Assembly: GCF_000007185.1 (NCBI RefSeq)
Contig: NC_003551.1
Span: 60,001 to 92,000, forward strand
Direction: 5' to 3'
DNA length: 32,000 nucleotides
Source: Methanopyrus kandleri AV19
GTDB taxonomy: Archaea > JAADCQ01 > Methanopyri > Methanopyrales > Methanopyraceae
Below are positions 20,293 to 26,022 of this stretch, piece by piece (the first letter of the stretch is position 1; every line of letters starts with the position of its first letter). The notes below the pieces were generated by a model. The model had not been told where the DNA came from. It did not search any database and saw only the letters and a program-made list of their open reading frames with translations. A program made the position numbers and the translations under genes.

Positions 20293-22284
20293 TCAGCCTA
20301 CCTCCAACAGCCTCGCGTTTCCGGGCGGCATAGCCCTCATCACGTCGTCTACAGTCAGATAACGGCGTAGGTTCTCCACCTCCTTCTTGAACAGCTCGAA
20401 GAGCCTCCTGGCGACGTCGGATTTGCGCTCGTTTCCAGGCTCCAAGACGCCGTACGTCATGCAGTGTTTCTTCACGGCGGAGACTGGTCCGCCCATTACC
20501 CTGTACCCACCCTCCACCTCTTGGACACCGATTGCCACCTTCAGCTCCGTTCGACGGAACCAGTTACGTTTACCGCGGATGATAGCACCTCCGTGGGGGG
20601 CCTCGGCGGACTTGTCTACCTGATCGGCCGTCACCCAGTAAACATCAGCGGCTTTAAGGCCCCAACGCCACGCTCGGGAATACGAAGCCGCGAAGATCGC
20701 CGCCTCGCGTAGGGTCGTCTCCGGGACCTCCTCGCCCTCAGTCTTGATCACGACATGTGGAGCTCCGTGCACGTGAGCGTGGACGAGGATGTCGTGCTCC
20801 TCCAGGTAGCGCCGCAGTATGATCTCGTTGGTATGAGCGTCCGAGCCGCCTATGACTACGAAACCGTCGGAAGAGATGAACCACCTGAACCGCTCGTACC
20901 AGTCCTTCTTGCGACGCTTCGTGAGCTCGACGGTCAGTTCCTCGAGCTCCACCTCGGGTGGGCCCTCTTCGAGTAGCTTCTCGAGTTCGCGCTCCTGCTC
21001 TCGAAGAACCTCCTGAGCGCGCTCGGCCTTACGTTCTAGCTCCTTCGCACGATCGAAAAGCTTGGAAGCCGTGGAGTGAACGTCCGAGTCGATCGGTACG
21101 GGCACGGTTACCTCGCCGTTCTCACCCGGCAACCTGAGGATCACGCGACGGTTCTCAACGTCGATGTCGGCTATCCTCTCCACTTCCTCGATGCCGGAAC
21201 CCTTAGCCTCTTGGATCCTCCGCTTGATCTCGTCCAGCGAGTACCCCTTGCGTTCTGCCTTCCGGAGCTCGCTCAGGATCCCGTCGACGAGGTTGTAGTT
21301 CAGGTACAGCGCGTTGGCCCGCCCACGGAGTTTCTCCGCCTTTGTACGTAGCTGCTCGATGCTCGAGCGCTGCCTCTCGATCGTCCGCTCGAGGCGACGT
21401 TTCTCACGCTCCCATTCCTCCCGCACTTCGCGTTCCTTCTCCGCCAGGAACTTCGTCACGTAATACTCGTCTAAGGCACGCTGGAAGGTGTCCTGCTCCT
21501 CCATCTCGAGCTCATCGGAGTAGCGTTCGAGCGGCACCGGCGTGACGTCCACGTAATCTCGCTCGGTCGTCCTATAGAGTGTGGGCCGTAGATCTCCCTC
21601 GGATATCTGCTCTAGGAGGTCCCGGAGCGTTTCGTAGAGCTCCTCTAGCTCATCCTCCTCGAACTCGGATGCGTGGGACTCCCGACGCTCGTACAGCCCG
21701 GCCCTCAGGAGCACCTCTTCGGCGTAGAGGCCCCCGAGACCCACGTCTACGGCGAGCGTCCGGACGAGATCGCGGTCGGCCTCGAGTAGTAGTTCCAGGA
21801 AGGCGTCACGGTCGAGCTCGTAAGGATCGGGCGGGCCTTCGGGTGGCTCGTACACTTCACCGGGCACGACGGCCCTGTTACGGAACCGTCTGGCCGGAAA
21901 AGCCCGCTCAATGACGTTGTTCTCGTCCGTTACGGCGAGCGTACCTTTGGGGAGCAGCTCGACATGGACCCTACGGCCCGAACGCAGGTCGAAGCGTAGG
22001 ATTCTATCGAAACCTAGCTGGGTGACGCGCTCGATGCGGTCGCCGGAAAGGGTGTTTCGGAGGGCCTGGGAAACGGAGGTGGGTTGGTCGGGGCTGGGTT
22101 TTGGGCGCCAGGTTAGGTGTACACGCATCCCCGGTTCCCAGACCAGATAATGGGAGCCCACGCCCGGGACGTGAACCTTGACCTTCAGCTCGCGCTCTCC
22201 TACCTGGTATATCTTGTCTATCAAGGCCCCCTCGAGCAAGGAATCTAGTTCGCGGGCCGTGGCGCGTACGTCGAAGGATGTCAT
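20293..22284 (-). CDS. NFACT-family protein (Rqc2/RqcH/FbpA homologue; ribosome quality control)
   Basis: 663 aa. N-terminal MTSFDVRATARELDSLLEGALIDKIYQ (NFACT-N), long central coiled coil, and C-terminal WFISSDGFVVIGGSDAHTNE ... VHAHVHGAPHVVIK (NFACT-R/DUF814-like). Strong GGAGG SD before the ATG. Confidence 0.85.
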   Translation of the reverse strand: MTSFDVRATARELDSLLEGALIDKIYQVGERELKVKVHVPGVGSHYLVWEPGMRVHLTWRPKPSPDQPTSVSQALRNTLSGDRIERVTQLGFDRILRFDLRSGRRVHVELLPKGTLAVTDENNVIERAFPARRFRNRAVVPGEVYEPPEGPPDPYELDRDAFLELLLEADRDLVRTLAVDVGLGGLYAEEVLLRAGLYERRESHASEFEEDELEELYETLRDLLEQISEGDLRPTLYRTTERDYVDVTPVPLERYSDELEMEEQDTFQRALDEYYVTKFLAEKEREVREEWEREKRRLERTIERQRSSIEQLRTKAEKLRGRANALYLNYNLVDGILSELRKAERKGYSLDEIKRRIQEAKGSGIEEVERIADIDVENRRVILRLPGENGEVTVPVPIDSDVHSTASKLFDRAKELERKAERAQEVLREQERELEKLLEEGPPEVELEELTVELTKRRKKDWYERFRWFISSDGFVVIGGSDAHTNEIILRRYLEEHDILVHAHVHGAPHVVIKTEGEEVPETTLREAAIFAASYSRAWRWGLKAADVYWVTADQVDKSAEAPHGGAIIRGKRNWFRRTELKVAIGVQEVEGGYRVMGGPVSAVKKHCMTYGVLEPGNERKSDVARRLFELFKKEVENLRRYLTVDDVMRAMPPGNARLLEVG

Positions 22285-22340
22285 CGCCTCCTTGGACCAC
22301 GCCTTCAGGCCGTGTGACCCCCGGTGGGATCACCGTCGGA

Positions 22341-23570
22341 TCACGCGGTCCTTCTCTTGATCTTCGCCTTGACGGCCTCCTTCCTCCGGACTGTCTCCTC
22401 CTTCTCCTCCTCCCCGAGTACTTCACGGACCAGGTGCCGGATGGCGTTCTTGAAGGCTATAATCAGATCCCAGTCGTGGGCCTTGACCGAGATGACGTTC
22501 CGTGCGTCCTTGACGTGGATACGTACCGAGTACTTGTGTCGGTTACCCTCCTCGTGGTACCGCTTGATGTGGACCTCGACAGCCTCGATCGACGGGCGCA
22601 TCGAGGCGAGCTTCTGAACGGCCGCGGCTATCGACTTACGGAGGATCACCAGGGTGAAGTCGTCGACGTCGTCTACGCCTTTCAGCGACACGAACACACC
22701 GCGCTTCCGCATCAGCTCGGGGATCTTGCGCAGGATGTCCCGCCTCGTCACGACTCCGATGGGCTCCTCGAGCTTATTGACGATCGGCATGCCCCGGATA
22801 CCGTGCTCCACAATCTTCTCACATAGGTCAACCACGGTCTCATCGGGCTCGGCTCGCACACAAGGTGAGCTCATGATATTCTTCACCGGATGACCGAAAG
22901 CGGGCACTTTCTCGCCCTTGCGGTCCATCTTCCCGAGCCTGGTGATCGGCTTGATGACCTCACGGATGATATCCGTGGTGGTGACGATTCCTCGGAGTTT
23001 GTTCGCGTCGTTGACCACCGGGAGTCTGCTGATACCGTGATCGCGCATTATGGCTCGGGCCTTGGCGATGGTATCGTTCTCGTGAATTGTGATCACCGGA
23101 GTGCTCATCACCTCCCGAGCGTCGATCTTGGTTAACTCGTCCGACTCGCGCGCGACGTCGATGATGTCGTACTCCGTTACGAGACCCACAAACTCCCCGT
23201 CCTCCACCACGGGTAAGGCGCGGAGACCCGAATCGATCATCTCGGTGATAGCTTCGACGATGAGCGTGTCGGGGGTGACCGTTTCCGGCTTCATCATCAC
23301 GGTTTCGGGTCTCACGTTCGAGATGTCCGCCACATGAGCGTCCACCACGTCGTAATACGAGATCATCCCCACAACCTTACCATCGTCTACGATGGGTATT
23401 TCCTTCACACCGTGGCGCTCCAACTTCGAGAATATCTTCGACAACGGCTCGCCGGGTTCCGCGGTGATGACCTCCTCAGCGGGCGTCATAATCTCCTCGA
23501 CGGGGCGCTCAAAGATTTCCAACGGATCGCCCCCATAGATGTTTGACGGCACGACGATGGTTCCGATCAC
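22341..23570 (-). CDS. Four-CBS-domain protein with C-terminal HPF/RaiA (S30AE)-like domain
   Basis: Four tandem CBS repeats (IMTPAEEVITAEP.., VMMKPETVTPD.., VMSTPVITIHE.., IMSSPCVRAEP..). The C-terminal ~120 aa (22344-22697) have a beta-alpha-beta-beta-beta-alpha pattern resembling hibernation factors. Start is uncertain: the ORF extends to 23657, and candidates are GTG 23570, GTG 23552 and ATG 23489. Confidence 0.8.
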   Translation of the reverse strand: MIGTIVVPSNIYGGDPLEIFERPVEEIMTPAEEVITAEPGEPLSKIFSKLERHGVKEIPIVDDGKVVGMISYYDVVDAHVADISNVRPETVMMKPETVTPDTLIVEAITEMIDSGLRALPVVEDGEFVGLVTEYDIIDVARESDELTKIDAREVMSTPVITIHENDTIAKARAIMRDHGISRLPVVNDANKLRGIVTTTDIIREVIKPITRLGKMDRKGEKVPAFGHPVKNIMSSPCVRAEPDETVVDLCEKIVEHGIRGMPIVNKLEEPIGVVTRRDILRKIPELMRKRGVFVSLKGVDDVDDFTLVILRKSIAAAVQKLASMRPSIEAVEVHIKRYHEEGNRHKYSVRIHVKDARNVISVKAHDWDLIIAFKNAIRHLVREVLGEEEKEETVRRKEAVKAKIKRRTA

Positions 23571-23619
23571 GGCAAAAAAGAAATCGGTACCGGACCCGCG
23601 CCGGCGTCGAGATGGCGAG

Positions 23620-23895
23620 ATGAGGGTGGGTGACTTGAGTGGTGAGCCCGAATACAAGTTGGCGCTAGCGGCAGTTCACCAAGGGCTCGGGATCCTAGCC
23701 GGATACCTATGCGCTACGGGGTACTCTATCGTGCTCGTGATGGCCCTTTTGATCTTGCCGTTCGCCCTCGGTAAGGTCCTGGAGCGATTGCTGGAGCGAG
23801 AGCGTATCGGCGGCGCCAAGGGCTGGTTAGCGTACGGTCTAGGGGCGTACCTCTCGGCGTGGATACTAGTTTGGACGTACTTCATTAACCGGTAA
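23620..23895 (+). CDS. Small membrane protein (2-3 TM)
   Basis: ATG 23620 within listed ORF 23539..23895. Hydrophobic segments are GLGILAGYLCATGYSIVLVMALLILPFAL and WLAYGLGAYLSAWILVWTYFI. Lies immediately upstream of ABCE1. Confidence 0.4.
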   Translation: MRVGDLSGEPEYKLALAAVHQGLGILAGYLCATGYSIVLVMALLILPFALGKVLERLLERERIGGAKGWLAYGLGAYLSAWILVWTYFINR

Positions 23896-23901
23896 TCGGG
23901 G

Positions 23902-25701
23902 GTGGTATCGATCGGCAGGAGGGTAGCAGTCGTGGACAGGGAGCGGTGCAAAGGAGGATCCAAATGCGACTACGTCTGCCAACGTTTCTGCCCTGGGGTC
24001 AGGACAGGGCGTGAGACCATCACGATCGACGAGGACACCAACAAGCCCGTGATCTCCGAGGAACTGTGCTCCGGCTGCGGTATCTGCGCCCAGAAGTGTC
24101 CCTTCGATGCGATCAAAGTTGTACGCCTCCCCGAGGAGCTAGAGGAAGAATGCGTACACAAGTACGAGGAGGGAGGGTTCCGACTCTACAGGCTCCCCGT
24201 TCCCAAACCCGGGAAGGTCACCGGCGTGATCGGACGCAACGCGATCGGTAAGACCACCGCCGCTAAGATACTCACAGGAGAGCTCAAACCCAACCTAGGG
24301 GATCCTGAAGCGGACCCCGACTGGGACGAGGTGATCCGAGCATTTTCGGGCACGGAGCTCCAGGAACACTTCCGACGTATCGCGGACGGTGATCTCCGAC
24401 CCGTCATGAAGCCGCAGTACGTCGAGGCCCTGCCCAAGGTCGTTAAGGGCCGGGTGAAGGACGTCCTCGAGGACGTAGACGAGCTCGGGGTTGTCGACGA
24501 GCTCATCGAGCGCCTCGGACTGACCGAGGTGACCGACCGACGGATCTCCGACCTCAGCGGTGGAGAGCTGCAGCGTGTCGCTATCGCCGCGGCACTCTCT
24601 CGAGACGCGGACTTCCTGGTTTTCGACGAACCGTGTAGCTACCTCGACGTCGAACAACGACTCTCGCTGGCCCGGTCACTCCGTGAGATCGTCGAGGATC
24701 GAGGTATTCCGATGCTCGTCATCGAGCACGACTTAGCCACACTGGACTACGTCGCCGACGTGGTGCACGTCCTCTATGGAAAGCGTGGTGCGTACGGTGT
24801 GGTGTCCAAGCCGATGGGTGTAGGCAAGGGGATCAACGCGTACCTGAAGGGTTACTTGGAGGCCGAGAACGTCCGCTTCCGGGACGAGGAAGTGGTGCTC
24901 CCGGAGAAACCGGCGGAGGCCGAGGCGGGTGAGCGAGACACCCTCGTGGAGTACGGCGAGCTCGTCAAGGAATACGACGGCGACTTCAGGCTCGAAGTGG
25001 AGCCGGGCGAAATTCGTGTCGGGGAGATCATCGGAGCCCTCGGGCCTAACGCCATCGGTAAGACGACCTTCGTTAAGCTCCTGGCCGGAGTACTCGAGCC
25101 TACCGGAGGAGGAGTCGATGTCGACGTTAAGGTCTCGTACAAGCCGCAGTACCTGGAGGTGGATTCGGATGAACCCGTCGAGCAAGTGCTACGAAGGACC
25201 GCCGGTTCGGAGTGGGGATCGAGCTGGTACCGGAGCAACATCGTGGAGCCACTGGACTTAGAGTACCTGTTCGATAGACCCTTGTGTGAGCTGAGCGGCG
25301 GTGAGCTGCAGCGCGTAGCCGTGGCGGCCGCCCTATCCCGGGAAGCCGATCTGTACCTTCTAGACGAGCCTAGCGCGTATTTGGACGTTGAAGAGAGGAT
25401 CAACACCGCCCGCGTCATCAGACGGGTGATCGAAGCACGGGATGCTGCCGCCATCGTAGTCGACCACGACTTACTCCTGCTAGACTACATCAGTGACAGG
25501 ATGATGGTGTTCGAAGGCGAGCCAGGAAAGCACGGACGTGCGAATCCGCCGGAGAGTAAACGGGAAGCCATGAACAGGTTTCTGTCGAACTTAGGCGTGA
25601 CGTTCAGGCGGGACCCGGAGACACGGAGGCCGAGAGCCAACAAGCCCGGCAGTCACCGTGACCGTGAACAGAAGCGTCGTGGTGAGTACTTCTACGCGTA
25701 G
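23902..25701 (+). CDS. ABCE1: ABCE1 / RNase L inhibitor homologue (ribosome recycling ATPase)
   Basis: N-terminal diferredoxin domain (CKGGSKCDYVCQRFCP, CSGCGICAQKCP) followed by two ABC cassettes. Cassette motifs are GRNAIGKTT / LSGGELQRV / VFDEP and GPNAIGKTT / LSGGELQRV / LLDEP. 599 aa. Confidence 0.93.
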   Translation: MVSIGRRVAVVDRERCKGGSKCDYVCQRFCPGVRTGRETITIDEDTNKPVISEELCSGCGICAQKCPFDAIKVVRLPEELEEECVHKYEEGGFRLYRLPVPKPGKVTGVIGRNAIGKTTAAKILTGELKPNLGDPEADPDWDEVIRAFSGTELQEHFRRIADGDLRPVMKPQYVEALPKVVKGRVKDVLEDVDELGVVDELIERLGLTEVTDRRISDLSGGELQRVAIAAALSRDADFLVFDEPCSYLDVEQRLSLARSLREIVEDRGIPMLVIEHDLATLDYVADVVHVLYGKRGAYGVVSKPMGVGKGINAYLKGYLEAENVRFRDEEVVLPEKPAEAEAGERDTLVEYGELVKEYDGDFRLEVEPGEIRVGEIIGALGPNAIGKTTFVKLLAGVLEPTGGGVDVDVKVSYKPQYLEVDSDEPVEQVLRRTAGSEWGSSWYRSNIVEPLDLEYLFDRPLCELSGGELQRVAVAAALSREADLYLLDEPSAYLDVEERINTARVIRRVIEARDAAAIVVDHDLLLLDYISDRMMVFEGEPGKHGRANPPESKREAMNRFLSNLGVTFRRDPETRRPRANKPGSHRDREQKRRGEYFYA

Positions 25702-25826
25702 GGGACCTCCCACGGCACTAGCCGACGAAAACGCGTCGGTCTCGAGCTCCACCGATTCTCGGACAGCAACATACCCCGACAACGTCCCGGAGGCCCTTTA
25801 TGTTGAAATATGGAAACATAATTGTA

Positions 25827-25831
25827 TTTTT
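25827..25831 (+). terminator. Oligo-T run (T5), candidate archaeal terminator for ABCE1
   Basis: TATTTTTA about 125 nt downstream of the ABCE1 stop. A second T5 lies at 25987-25991. Confidence 0.3.
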
Positions 25832-25848
25832 AGGTTCATACGGTTTAT

Positions 25849-25862
25849 GCATGATCCGTGCA
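25849..25862. repeat. Direct repeat copy 1: GCATGATCCGTGCA
   Basis: 13 of 14 identical to copy 2, which starts 77 bp downstream. Both copies are preceded by TTAT. Confidence 0.7.
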
Positions 25863-25925
25863 TGGAAGTTGAATGATAGTACGTAAATAGTATGGTACCA
25901 ATGCATAGATTACATGAGCGTTATC

Positions 25926-25939
25926 GCATGGTCCGTGCA
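25926..25939. repeat. Direct repeat copy 2: GCATGGTCCGTGCA
   Basis: See copy 1. Read directly from the sequence. Confidence 0.7.
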
Positions 25940-26022
25940 AGTGTAACGTATTATCGTCGAAGAATCGTAATATTATTTACGTACAATTTTTCGACAATCA
26001 TACACAGACCGTAATATCCAAC

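Follow-up and report, generated by a model that had tools for sequence, protein, structure and literature searches.

Genes and features of the locus

The window analysed here is a stretch of 32,000 nucleotides from Methanopyrus kandleri AV19 (contig NC_003551.1, positions 60,001 to 92,000). It contains a gene for a protein with CBS modules and an HPF-like domain, hereafter hibA, which is followed on the same strand by rqcH and faces an EMC6-like gene and ABCE1 on the opposite strand (Table 1).

Table 1 Features of the hibA locus, in window coordinates
Feature	Position	Strand	Basis or remark
rqcH (archaeal NFACT / Rqc2 homologue), 663 aa	20293..22284	(-)	NF041120, Pfam
hibA-rqcH spacer, 56 nt, GC-rich	22285..22340	(-)	sequence reading
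hibA/AHA-type gene, 393 aa	22341..23522	(-)	proposed TTG start 23522; stop TGA 22341-22343
C-terminal HPF-like domain, residues 272-393, ~120 aa	22344..22709	(-)	DSSP topology, Foldseek, family profile
N-terminal CBS tetrad, two Bateman modules, residues about 1-271	22710..23522	(-)	Pfam, AlphaFold2, Foldseek
Long loop within CBS3, residues about 191-209, KPITRLGKMDRKGEKVPAF	22896..22952	(-)	counterpart of HibA 'PTC loop' / AHA 'loop 3'
Divergent intergenic region hibA / EMC6-like, 97 bp	23523..23619	.	sequence reading
EMC6_arch-like small membrane protein, 91 aa	23620..23895	(+)	ATG 23620; maximal ORF from 23539
ABCE1/RLI ribosome-splitting ATPase, 599 aa	23902..25701	(+)	NF009945, Pfam

The two large neighbours are firmly assigned. 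RqcH scored 653.8 bits with NF041120 (RqcH_arch, cut-off 400) and has the Pfam domains NFACT_N and NFACT-R_1, and ABCE1 scored 894.5 bits with NF009945 (cut-off 469) and has Fer4_RLI and two ABC_tran domains. The small membrane protein gene that a previous sequence-only reading had placed between the CBS gene and ABCE1 is present and EMC6_arch-like. Its match to PF19094 is weak here (E 0.002), with E-values of 9e-8 and 2e-6 for its counterparts in two other loci (L001 and L002), and the three proteins share 16 invariant alignment columns.

The maximal open reading frame of the CBS gene, 22341..23657(-) in the ORF list of the window, does encode the 438 amino acids reported in that reading. Most likely, though, translation begins at TTG 23522, giving 393 amino acids. 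Exact look-ups of the 438-aa sequence and of a form beginning with Met57 returned no match, and the start was taken from the orthologues. Eleven Methanopyrus orthologues (392-397 aa) begin with MEVFERPVEE or MKVFEQPVEE, matching TTG 23522, which is preceded by the Shine-Dalgarno-like GGGGGCGATCC. The 5' extension of the longer reading would also overlap the small membrane-protein ORF on the opposite strand.

As had been read from the sequence, rqcH is co-directional with hibA and begins 56 nt past its stop codon. The spacer carries the rqcH Shine-Dalgarno motif GGAGG (22287-22291) and a hairpin (22314-22333, its fold extending into the hibA stop codon), and no AT-rich, TATA-like box was found in it. 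Among Methanopyrus species it differs in length and sequence, with some 25 nt ahead of the rqcH ATG conserved, including the Shine-Dalgarno motif. We discarded the hairpin as a notable element: its folding energy of -26.2 kcal/mol was reached by 41 of 200 shuffled sequences (z -0.93), and its sequence is not conserved in Methanopyrus. Judged from this arrangement, hibA and rqcH are probably co-transcribed. A T/A-rich box at about 23574-23584 in the divergent region could be a bidirectional promoter element.

Domain architecture and family identity

The four tandem CBS modules proposed earlier were confirmed by Pfam (four stretches, E 8.7e-58). In the AlphaFold2 model with the CBS tetrad (mean pLDDT 84), the only segment below 50 was residues 193-205. 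It lies within the CBS3 loop, a 19-residue insertion that aligns with residues 188-206, approximately, of Pyrococcus abyssi HibA and keeps GEK-P-F. A role for this loop has been described in the solved HibA and AHA structures (PMC13324472, PMC13728122). Foldseek matched the tetrad to SriA/B, SriD, MJ1225, AMPK-gamma and Dri (E 1e-21 to 1e-16), and we predict that it is an adenine-nucleotide-binding module docking on the 50S subunit.

The C-terminal domain was folded and searched separately, because the full-length model gave only CBS-tetrad proteins in Foldseek. Modelled alone (pLDDT 87.5), it bore out the proposed HPF/RaiA-like fold: the best 25 PDB matches were exclusively HPF, RaiA, pY or PSRP1 (E 4e-5 to 4e-3), with target TM scores of 0.50-0.79 and rmsd of 2.4-4.0 A over about 90-107 columns. 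A family profile of the domain, searched against the PDB, found HibA (4e-13), the 406-aa CBS-HPF protein 9l96 (1e-12) and Escherichia coli HPF (6.8e-8), and in the M. kandleri genome it had exactly one match. Pfam S30AE (PF02482) had none genome-wide at E <= 1, and TIGR00741 (yfiA) matched weakly (E 0.019, 15.4 bits, cut-off 40.9), so it is the archaeal family profile and the predicted fold that tie the domain to bacterial HPF. The C-terminal tail, previously described as Lys/Arg-rich, turned out to be a mixture of Glu, Lys and Arg and is not purely basic.

End-to-end similarity to a characterised protein completes the picture. With phmmer, residues 53-427 of the 438-aa ORF aligned to residues 6-382 of the 392 in P. 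abyssi HibA (PDB 9SR9 chain H, E 2.2e-39). Together with structure matches to HPF, RaiA and pY only, this places the M. kandleri protein among the archaeal ribosome hibernation factors published as HibA/AHA; architecture, fold and membership are thus demonstrated. Such CBS-HPF proteins are thus already described, as HibA and AHA (PMC13324472, PMC13728122). The HPF-domain seeds of the AHA survey even include an M. kandleri protein, Q8TZ50 (PMC13728122). As the genome has a single HPF-domain match, Q8TZ50 is almost certainly the product of 22341..23522(-). Some hibA orthologues are already labelled by JGI 'CBS domain-containing protein/ribosome-associated translation inhibitor RaiA'.

Three other identities were considered and rejected. 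A Sri protein would be a stand-alone tetrad of ~260-340 aa, usually in a sri cluster; here an HPF domain is present and no CBS gene is adjacent. Dri has two consecutive tetrads in ~650 aa, where the M. kandleri protein has one tetrad and 393 aa. Membership in an HhpR/IMPDH-type family was dismissed because the NCBIfam matches are partial, far under the cut-offs and confined to the CBS part.

The same evidence bears on function. CBS modules are widespread regulators, and the protein might act on a non-ribosomal target, in transcription like HhpR or in metabolism like IMPDH or AMPK-gamma, with its HPF-like domain serving as a generic RNA- or protein-binding fold. The partial HhpR, CbpB and IMPDH matches point that way, as do the dsRBD folds among the weaker Foldseek matches of the C-terminal domain and the legacy name 'Dehydrogenase' still borne by PDB entry 9SR9, which we confirmed to be HibA-ATP. 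However, the CbpB match, too, is far under its cut-off and confined to the CBS part, HPF proteins rank above every other fold, and the protein matched collinearly over the full length has been observed on ribosomes by cryo-EM (PMC13324472). We regard a non-ribosomal role as very improbable. With high confidence, the best explanation for 22341..23522(-) is a Methanopyrus HibA/AHA whose mechanism would follow that of its homologues and whose placement looks like the local form of a wider trend.

Predicted mode of action

Members of the family from P. abyssi, Thermococcus barophilus and Haloferax volcanii bind 70S ribosomes or 30S subunits, inhibit translation and preserve ribosomes in stationary phase (PMC13324472, PMC13728122). 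Going by the homologous complexes solved for P. abyssi and H. volcanii, the C-terminal domain of the Methanopyrus protein would sit in the 30S decoding/mRNA channel, overlapping the positions of A- and P-site tRNA and of mRNA. The CBS tetrad would lie on the 50S subunit, from where the long CBS3 loop could enter the peptidyl-transferase centre. With one domain on each subunit, HibA would bridge the two, so that idle 70S ribosomes may be held together, translation blocked and rRNA shielded under energy limitation. Ribosome binding, nucleotide sensing and regulation are, for Methanopyrus, likewise predictions from the homologues.

Binding of adenine nucleotides by the CBS module probably ties occupancy to the energy state. 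In P. abyssi HibA the module binds AMP more tightly than ADP and ADP more tightly than ATP (Kd by ITC), and the positions of the protein on the ribosome are scarcely altered by AMP or ATP (PMC13324472). For this reason, even the HibA/AHA family as a whole cannot yet be credited with energy-charge sensing.

Gene context in other archaea

The sequence-only reading had proposed that the locus forms a functional island of ribosome rescue and hibernation, to be judged by the conservation of its gene order. Of six Methanopyrus genomes, five have hibA adjacent to rqcH, as does one related MAG, and the full order, in which hibA->rqcH diverges from EMC6-like->ABCE1, is specific to Methanopyrus. All of these genomes but the MAG are from one genus, and their agreement therefore counts as a single observation. 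So narrow a distribution is among the outcomes that the sequence-only reading had itself named as refuting.

These results would be expected if hibA had come to lie between rqcH and the EMC6-like and ABCE1 genes by neutral rearrangement in the lineage of Methanopyrus, with independent regulation and no functional meaning. In the 73 non-Methanopyrus archaeal genomes carrying the HPF domain, no match to it came within 10 kb of RqcH or 20 kb of ABCE1, and the RqcH loci of Thermococci and Archaeoglobi have no HibA in the vicinity. In one Methanopyrus species (G002) rqcH lies 8 kb off on the opposite strand, which shows that hibA does not require adjoining rqcH. The unremarkable stability of the spacer hairpin fits as well. 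Against chance speaks that non-orthologous CBS-type hibernation factors of the Sri type are encoded by genes immediately downstream of rqcH in Korarchaeum (7/7), sampled Asgard archaea (34/57) and some Bathyarchaeia, where about 1% would be expected by chance. The recruitment of two different hibernation-factor types beside rqcH argues for selection. We consider a neutral origin a serious possibility, somewhat short of an even chance.

The Sri-like genes are dual-CBS, SriC/SriD-like or SriA/SriB-like, and some overlap rqcH by 4 bp. CBS-pair genes (HTH-CBS, 152-aa CBS) that some lineages have 1-2 kb away from rqcH were put aside as generic. The tight linkage of Sri-like genes to rqcH in Korarchaeia, Asgard archaea and part of the Bathyarchaeia makes it plausible that hibernation factors and RqcH are associated more generally, and lends the proposed island partial support, although the adjacency of hibA itself to rqcH and ABCE1 is limited to Methanopyrus and the close MAG. 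The Methanopyrus placement looks like a local version of this wider tendency. More tentatively, rqcH and CBS-type hibernation-factor genes may form a recurrent, often operonic association across archaeal phyla, usually flanked by a divergent EMC6-like gene, which would suggest a functional coupling of RQC and hibernation; we give this extended reading slightly less than even weight.

A stronger version holds that HibA, RqcH, the EMC6-like protein and ABCE1 constitute one co-regulated rescue/hibernation island, in which an energy sensor controls both rescue and recycling. The tight order in Methanopyrus is in its favor: hibA and rqcH are 56 nt apart, the divergent region spans 97 bp, and 6 nt separate the EMC6-like gene from ABCE1. 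So is the fact that two further GTDB families (G012/G035 and G029) have the backbone rqcH<->EMC6-like->ABCE1 with no hibA in it, and that an EMC6-like gene is divergent from rqcH in nine families and directly upstream of ABCE1 in five. However, ABCE1 is usually distant from rqcH (within 1 kb in just 3 of the 129 non-Methanopyrus genomes having both), HibA was never near ABCE1 in the genomes sampled outside Methanopyrus, and the published ribosome binding of HibA/AHA needed no partner from these genes (PMC13324472). The connection to ABCE1 runs via the EMC6-like gene rather than hibA, and a single island of all four genes seems unlikely.

Significance

The protein itself is not new, its family having been published in 2025-2026, yet the Methanopyrus member is an uncharacterised one from a hyperthermophilic methanogen. 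An annotation as 'HibA/AHA-type ribosome hibernation factor' can now replace 'CBS domain-containing protein'. Very little work exists on archaeal RqcH, and the gene context is the more useful outcome. What may be novel is that hibernation-factor genes repeatedly adjoin rqcH in several archaeal phyla; no link between hibernation and ribosome rescue was found in the HibA, AHA, Sri or NFACT papers. The context yields a testable hypothesis, that the rescue of stalled ribosomes and the storage of idle ones are coordinated, and it indicates gene pairs for joint deletion in tractable archaea. If true, RQC and hibernation, perhaps also membrane-protein insertion, would be co-regulated or mechanistically coupled in archaea.

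Comparison with known systems

The closest known relative is HibA of P. abyssi (Q9UYR4) and T. barophilus (PDB 9SR9-9SRF, 9T7H; Madru et al., Nat Commun 2026, PMC13324472). The P. abyssi and M. kandleri proteins are nearly equal in length (392 and 393 aa) and share the CBS tetrad, the long CBS3 loop and the C-terminal HPF/RaiA-like domain, although their sequence similarity is only distant. The HibA paper does not discuss a context such as that of Methanopyrus, in which hibA adjoins rqcH and EMC6-like->ABCE1. AHA of H. volcanii (HVO_2384, D4GWN2; PDB 12DM; Souza et al., EMBO J 2026, PMC13728122) is the same family under another name. Pfam S30AE detects haloarchaeal AHA, which served as a control, but not the Methanopyrus domain.

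Bacterial HPF/RaiA (YfiA, pY) shares the HPF fold by Foldseek, a profile-level similarity and presumably the same 30S site. In contrast to it, the Methanopyrus domain shares its polypeptide with a 270-aa CBS tetrad, and its last helix is longer. It also remains under the curated cut-offs of PF02482 and TIGR00741 and lacks the dimerisation domain of long HPF. SriA-SriD of Methanosarcina acetivorans (9ZNF, 9ZNG, 9ZNI; PMC13004131) and Dri of Pyrobaculum calidifontis (9E6Q) are, like HibA, CBS-tetrad hibernation factors and the nearest structural matches to its N-terminal module, but they have no HPF domain. The Sri proteins differ from HibA also in being separate polypeptides that bind in tandem (PMC13004131).

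A conserved gene context around archaeal rqcH was also the subject of Burroughs and Aravind 2014, who described NFACT with a Mut7-C RNase and AMMECR1 and did not mention CBS, EMC6 or ABCE1 (PMC4075521). In the window the gene after rqcH is a convergent ORF, and in four Asgard/Bathyarchaeia loci, where Mut7-C and AMMECR1 were sought after the CBS genes and were absent, an Amidohydro_1 gene takes their place.

The hibA gene and its product

The sequence-only reading had described a 438-aa ORF with four CBS modules beside genes for NFACT, ABCE1 and a small membrane protein. These genes are all present in the window, which has a G+C content of about 60%, and the maximal ORF (22341..23657, minus strand) indeed spans 438 aa, in which Pfam marks four CBS stretches (E 8.7e-58). 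The length of the protein, however, had to be corrected. The orthologues (n = 11, 392-397 aa) begin with MEVFERPVEE or MKVFEQPVEE, which corresponds to the TTG at 23522 in the window, and GGGGGCGATCC precedes this codon. We therefore place the start of hibA there.

Genes of the hibA neighbourhood, in window coordinates
Gene	Position	Strand	Remarks
rqcH/NFACT	20293..22284	-	NF041120, 654 bits vs cut-off 400
hibA	22341..23522	-	393 aa; start placed by orthologue N-termini
EMC6_arch-like small ORF	23620..23895	+	91 aa; between hibA and ABCE1
ABCE1/RLI	23902..25701	+	NF009945, 894 bits

A phmmer search of PDB sequences gave a collinear, full-length match to chain H of 9SR9 (392 aa; E 2.2e-39; ORF residues 53-427 vs 6-382), which Madru et al. 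(PMC13324472) list under data availability as HibA-ATP of Pyrococcus abyssi. The AlphaFold2 model, built from a 20-sequence family alignment, had a mean pLDDT of 84, and its C-terminal part consists of a strand (277-281), a helix (288-308), three strands (312-325, 328-339, 343-350) and a second helix (353-392). The sole low-confidence segment, residues 193-205, corresponds in the alignment to the P. abyssi "PTC loop" and retains a GEK-P-F motif.

Because Foldseek with the whole model retrieved only CBS tetrads (SriA/B, SriD, MJ1225, AMPK-gamma and Dri), the last 125 residues were modelled separately (pLDDT 87.5). Each of the top 25 PDB matches to this domain was an HPF, a RaiA/YfiA/pY or a plastid PSRP1 structure, with E values between 4e-5 and 4e-3 and target TM-scores reaching 0.79. 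The proposal of an HPF-like C-terminal domain was thus borne out by modelling and structure search, the check named for it beforehand. A domain profile of 17 members also matched HibA (4e-13), 9l96, another CBS-HPF protein (1e-12), and E. coli HPF (6.8e-8), and picked out a single HPF-domain gene in the genome. TIGR00741 stayed below its cut-off on the protein (E 0.019, 15.4 bits vs 40.9). Pfam Ribosomal_S30AE (PF02482) had no match in the whole genome at E <= 1, while the Haloferax and Sulfolobus control genomes were detected. Since PF02482 is silent on a genome in which an HPF-like domain is present, surveys based on Pfam would overlook this domain in Methanopyrus HibA.

Gene neighbourhood within Methanopyrus

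In the window, rqcH starts 56 nt past the hibA stop codon. Five of the six Methanopyrus genomes, as well as one related MAG (L025), have the two genes side by side on one strand. In the exception, genome G002, rqcH is found on the opposite strand at a distance of 8 kb, and a CobQ-like amidotransferase gene follows hibA (locus L004, contig 58). This genome retains hibA facing the pair of EMC6-like gene and ABCE1, and its layout indicates a local rearrangement. The head-to-head arrangement of hibA with the small ORF and ABCE1 is present in five of the six genomes, with a contig break at the site in the sixth.

The hibA-rqcH spacer is GC-rich, lacks an AT-rich box, and carries GGAGG 3 nt ahead of the rqcH ATG. 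Across Methanopyrus species it measures 33-73 nt and varies in sequence, except for the approximately 25 nt preceding the rqcH ATG. Co-transcription of hibA and rqcH is plausible.

Around and just past the hibA stop (window 22326-22343), the element GTGATCC, complementary to the 16S 3' end, occurs twice, the first copy including the stop itself. Ahead of the hibA start, a G-run is followed by a similar element, CGATCC. The hairpin formed by these elements past the hibA stop is not statistically unusual and was dismissed as a notable element, being no stabler than shuffled sequence (z -0.93). Past the 3' end of ABCE1, the G+C content dips to 0.549 in the 1-kb bin 25001-26000, compared with about 0.60 around it.

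Conservation in other archaea

The comparison covered 151 archaeal genomes in 80 GTDB families. Of these genomes, 79 contain the HPF domain, mostly in HibA-type frames of 360-460 aa. In the 73 non-Methanopyrus HPF genomes, the HPF-domain gene was never closer than 10 kb to RqcH or 20 kb to ABCE1 (nearest, 17 kb), a result to be read knowing that many drafts carry the two genes on separate contigs. Within the 4-kb flanks of 78 named RqcH loci, HibA adjoined RqcH only in the Methanopyrus-like MAG, and this adjacency was absent from the Thermococci and Archaeoglobi loci. In its hibA-specific form, the proposed functional island is thus limited to one genus, an outcome named beforehand as counting against it. 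The comparison of loci suggests that rqcH is more widely associated with genes for hibernation factors and with the EMC6-like gene.

The EMC6_arch score is weak for the small window ORF and clear for its counterparts in two compared loci (L001, 5518-5769; L002, 2691-2972). In the 151-genome set, EMC6_arch lies divergent from rqcH at a distance of at most 250 bp in 16 genomes from nine of the roughly 24 families in which a copy is detectable. It lies immediately upstream of ABCE1 in eight genomes (five families). The trio of rqcH, divergent EMC6-like gene and ABCE1 also occurs without hibA (G012/G035 and G029). Among the named RqcH loci, 57 of the 75 evaluable ones have a divergent EMC6-like gene (many in the range L026-L101), including Methanobacteriales, Bathyarchaeia, Hydrothermarchaeota, Ca. 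Pyrohabitans, Hodarchaeota and Sifarchaeum. The ABCE1 connection is weaker and runs via the EMC6-like gene; rqcH and ABCE1 are usually distant from each other in the 151 genomes. According to a prediction by Lewis and Hegde (PMC8675477), YidC is the partner of EMC6-like proteins in archaea; their paper does not mention the rqcH/ABCE1 gene context. Neither this context nor any paper combining EMC6 with RqcH or NFACT was found in the literature searched.

CBS genes adjoin rqcH in other lineages. In all seven Korarchaeum genomes, including K. cryptofilum OPF8 (L198), rqcH overlaps a co-directional dual-CBS gene by 4 bp, followed by two CBS tetrads. Of the 57 evaluable Asgard loci sampled, 34 have a co-directional CBS gene whose start lies no more than 500 bp past rqcH. 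Three Bathyarchaeia loci have the same layout, and so do two further families, though with a dual-CBS gene only.

HibA-bearing lineages of two GTDB families (L016, L017, L192 and L197 in f33; L194 in f18) encode HibA elsewhere in the genome and carry a CBS-pair gene of 180-185 aa roughly 100 bp past the end of rqcH. Family f33 has a gene for an HTH-CBS regulator 1.2-1.8 kb upstream of rqcH. In Odinarchaeum, Freyarchaeum, Hodarchaeota and Bathyarchaeia, the CBS genes are followed by a dihydroorotase-like Amidohydro_1 gene of about 445 aa.

A possible link between ribosome rescue and hibernation

Two non-orthologous kinds of CBS hibernation factor, the HPF-bearing HibA and the tetrads of the Sri type, thus adjoin rqcH, in positions that differ among phyla. 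It is unlikely that neutral accident lies behind every one of these adjacencies, and we therefore give some, though tentative, credence to the idea that ribosome quality control and hibernation are truly coupled, in function or in regulation. For Methanopyrus itself, where the pairing is kept in most genomes of a single genus, the placement of hibA could quite conceivably be fortuitous. The literature searched did not contain the putative association that joins rqcH to hibernation-factor genes and to the EMC6-like gene. The 2014 NFACT paper (PMC4075521) names Mut7-C and AMMECR1 as NFACT neighbours and not CBS, and the Sri preprint (PMC13004131) mentions neither RqcH, NFACT nor gene neighbours.

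Comparison with known hibernation factors

The tetrads next to rqcH are full-length homologues of the Methanosarcina acetivorans Sri proteins solved on ribosomes. Those of Korarchaeum (274 aa, 2e-23) and Hodarchaeota (L099; 289 aa, 2e-42) are SriC-like (9ZNI chain 6), and those of Odinarchaeum (LCB_4, L125; 263 aa, 6e-20) and Freyarchaeum (L110; 266 aa, 9e-47) are SriD-like (9ZNG chain 7). A Bathyarchaeia pair (L103) is SriA/SriB-like (9ZNF chains 4 and 5; 3e-31 and 1e-63).

The CBS-HPF architecture is already published, under the name HibA (bioRxiv 2025; Nat Commun 2026, PMC13324472) and under the name AHA (EMBO J 2026, PMC13728122). [quoted passage not shown] On the 50S, three positions of the CBS module are described, in one of which the loop lies within the peptidyl-transferase centre (PMC13324472). 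HibA binds AMP, ADP and ATP with Kd values of 12, 65 and 113 uM, and deletion of hibA slows recovery from stationary phase (PMC13324472). AHA binds likewise, with two AMP molecules bound (PMC13728122). The HPF-domain seeds of the AHA survey include "Methanopyrus kandleri (Q8TZ50)" (PMC13728122), and since the genome has one HPF-domain gene, this seed is almost certainly the window HibA. By homology with the solved HibA/AHA complexes, Methanopyrus HibA would bind ribosomes and sense nucleotides in the same manner. The protein is an uncharacterised member of the known HibA/AHA family, and the interest of the locus lies not in the protein but in the association of rqcH with hibernation factors.
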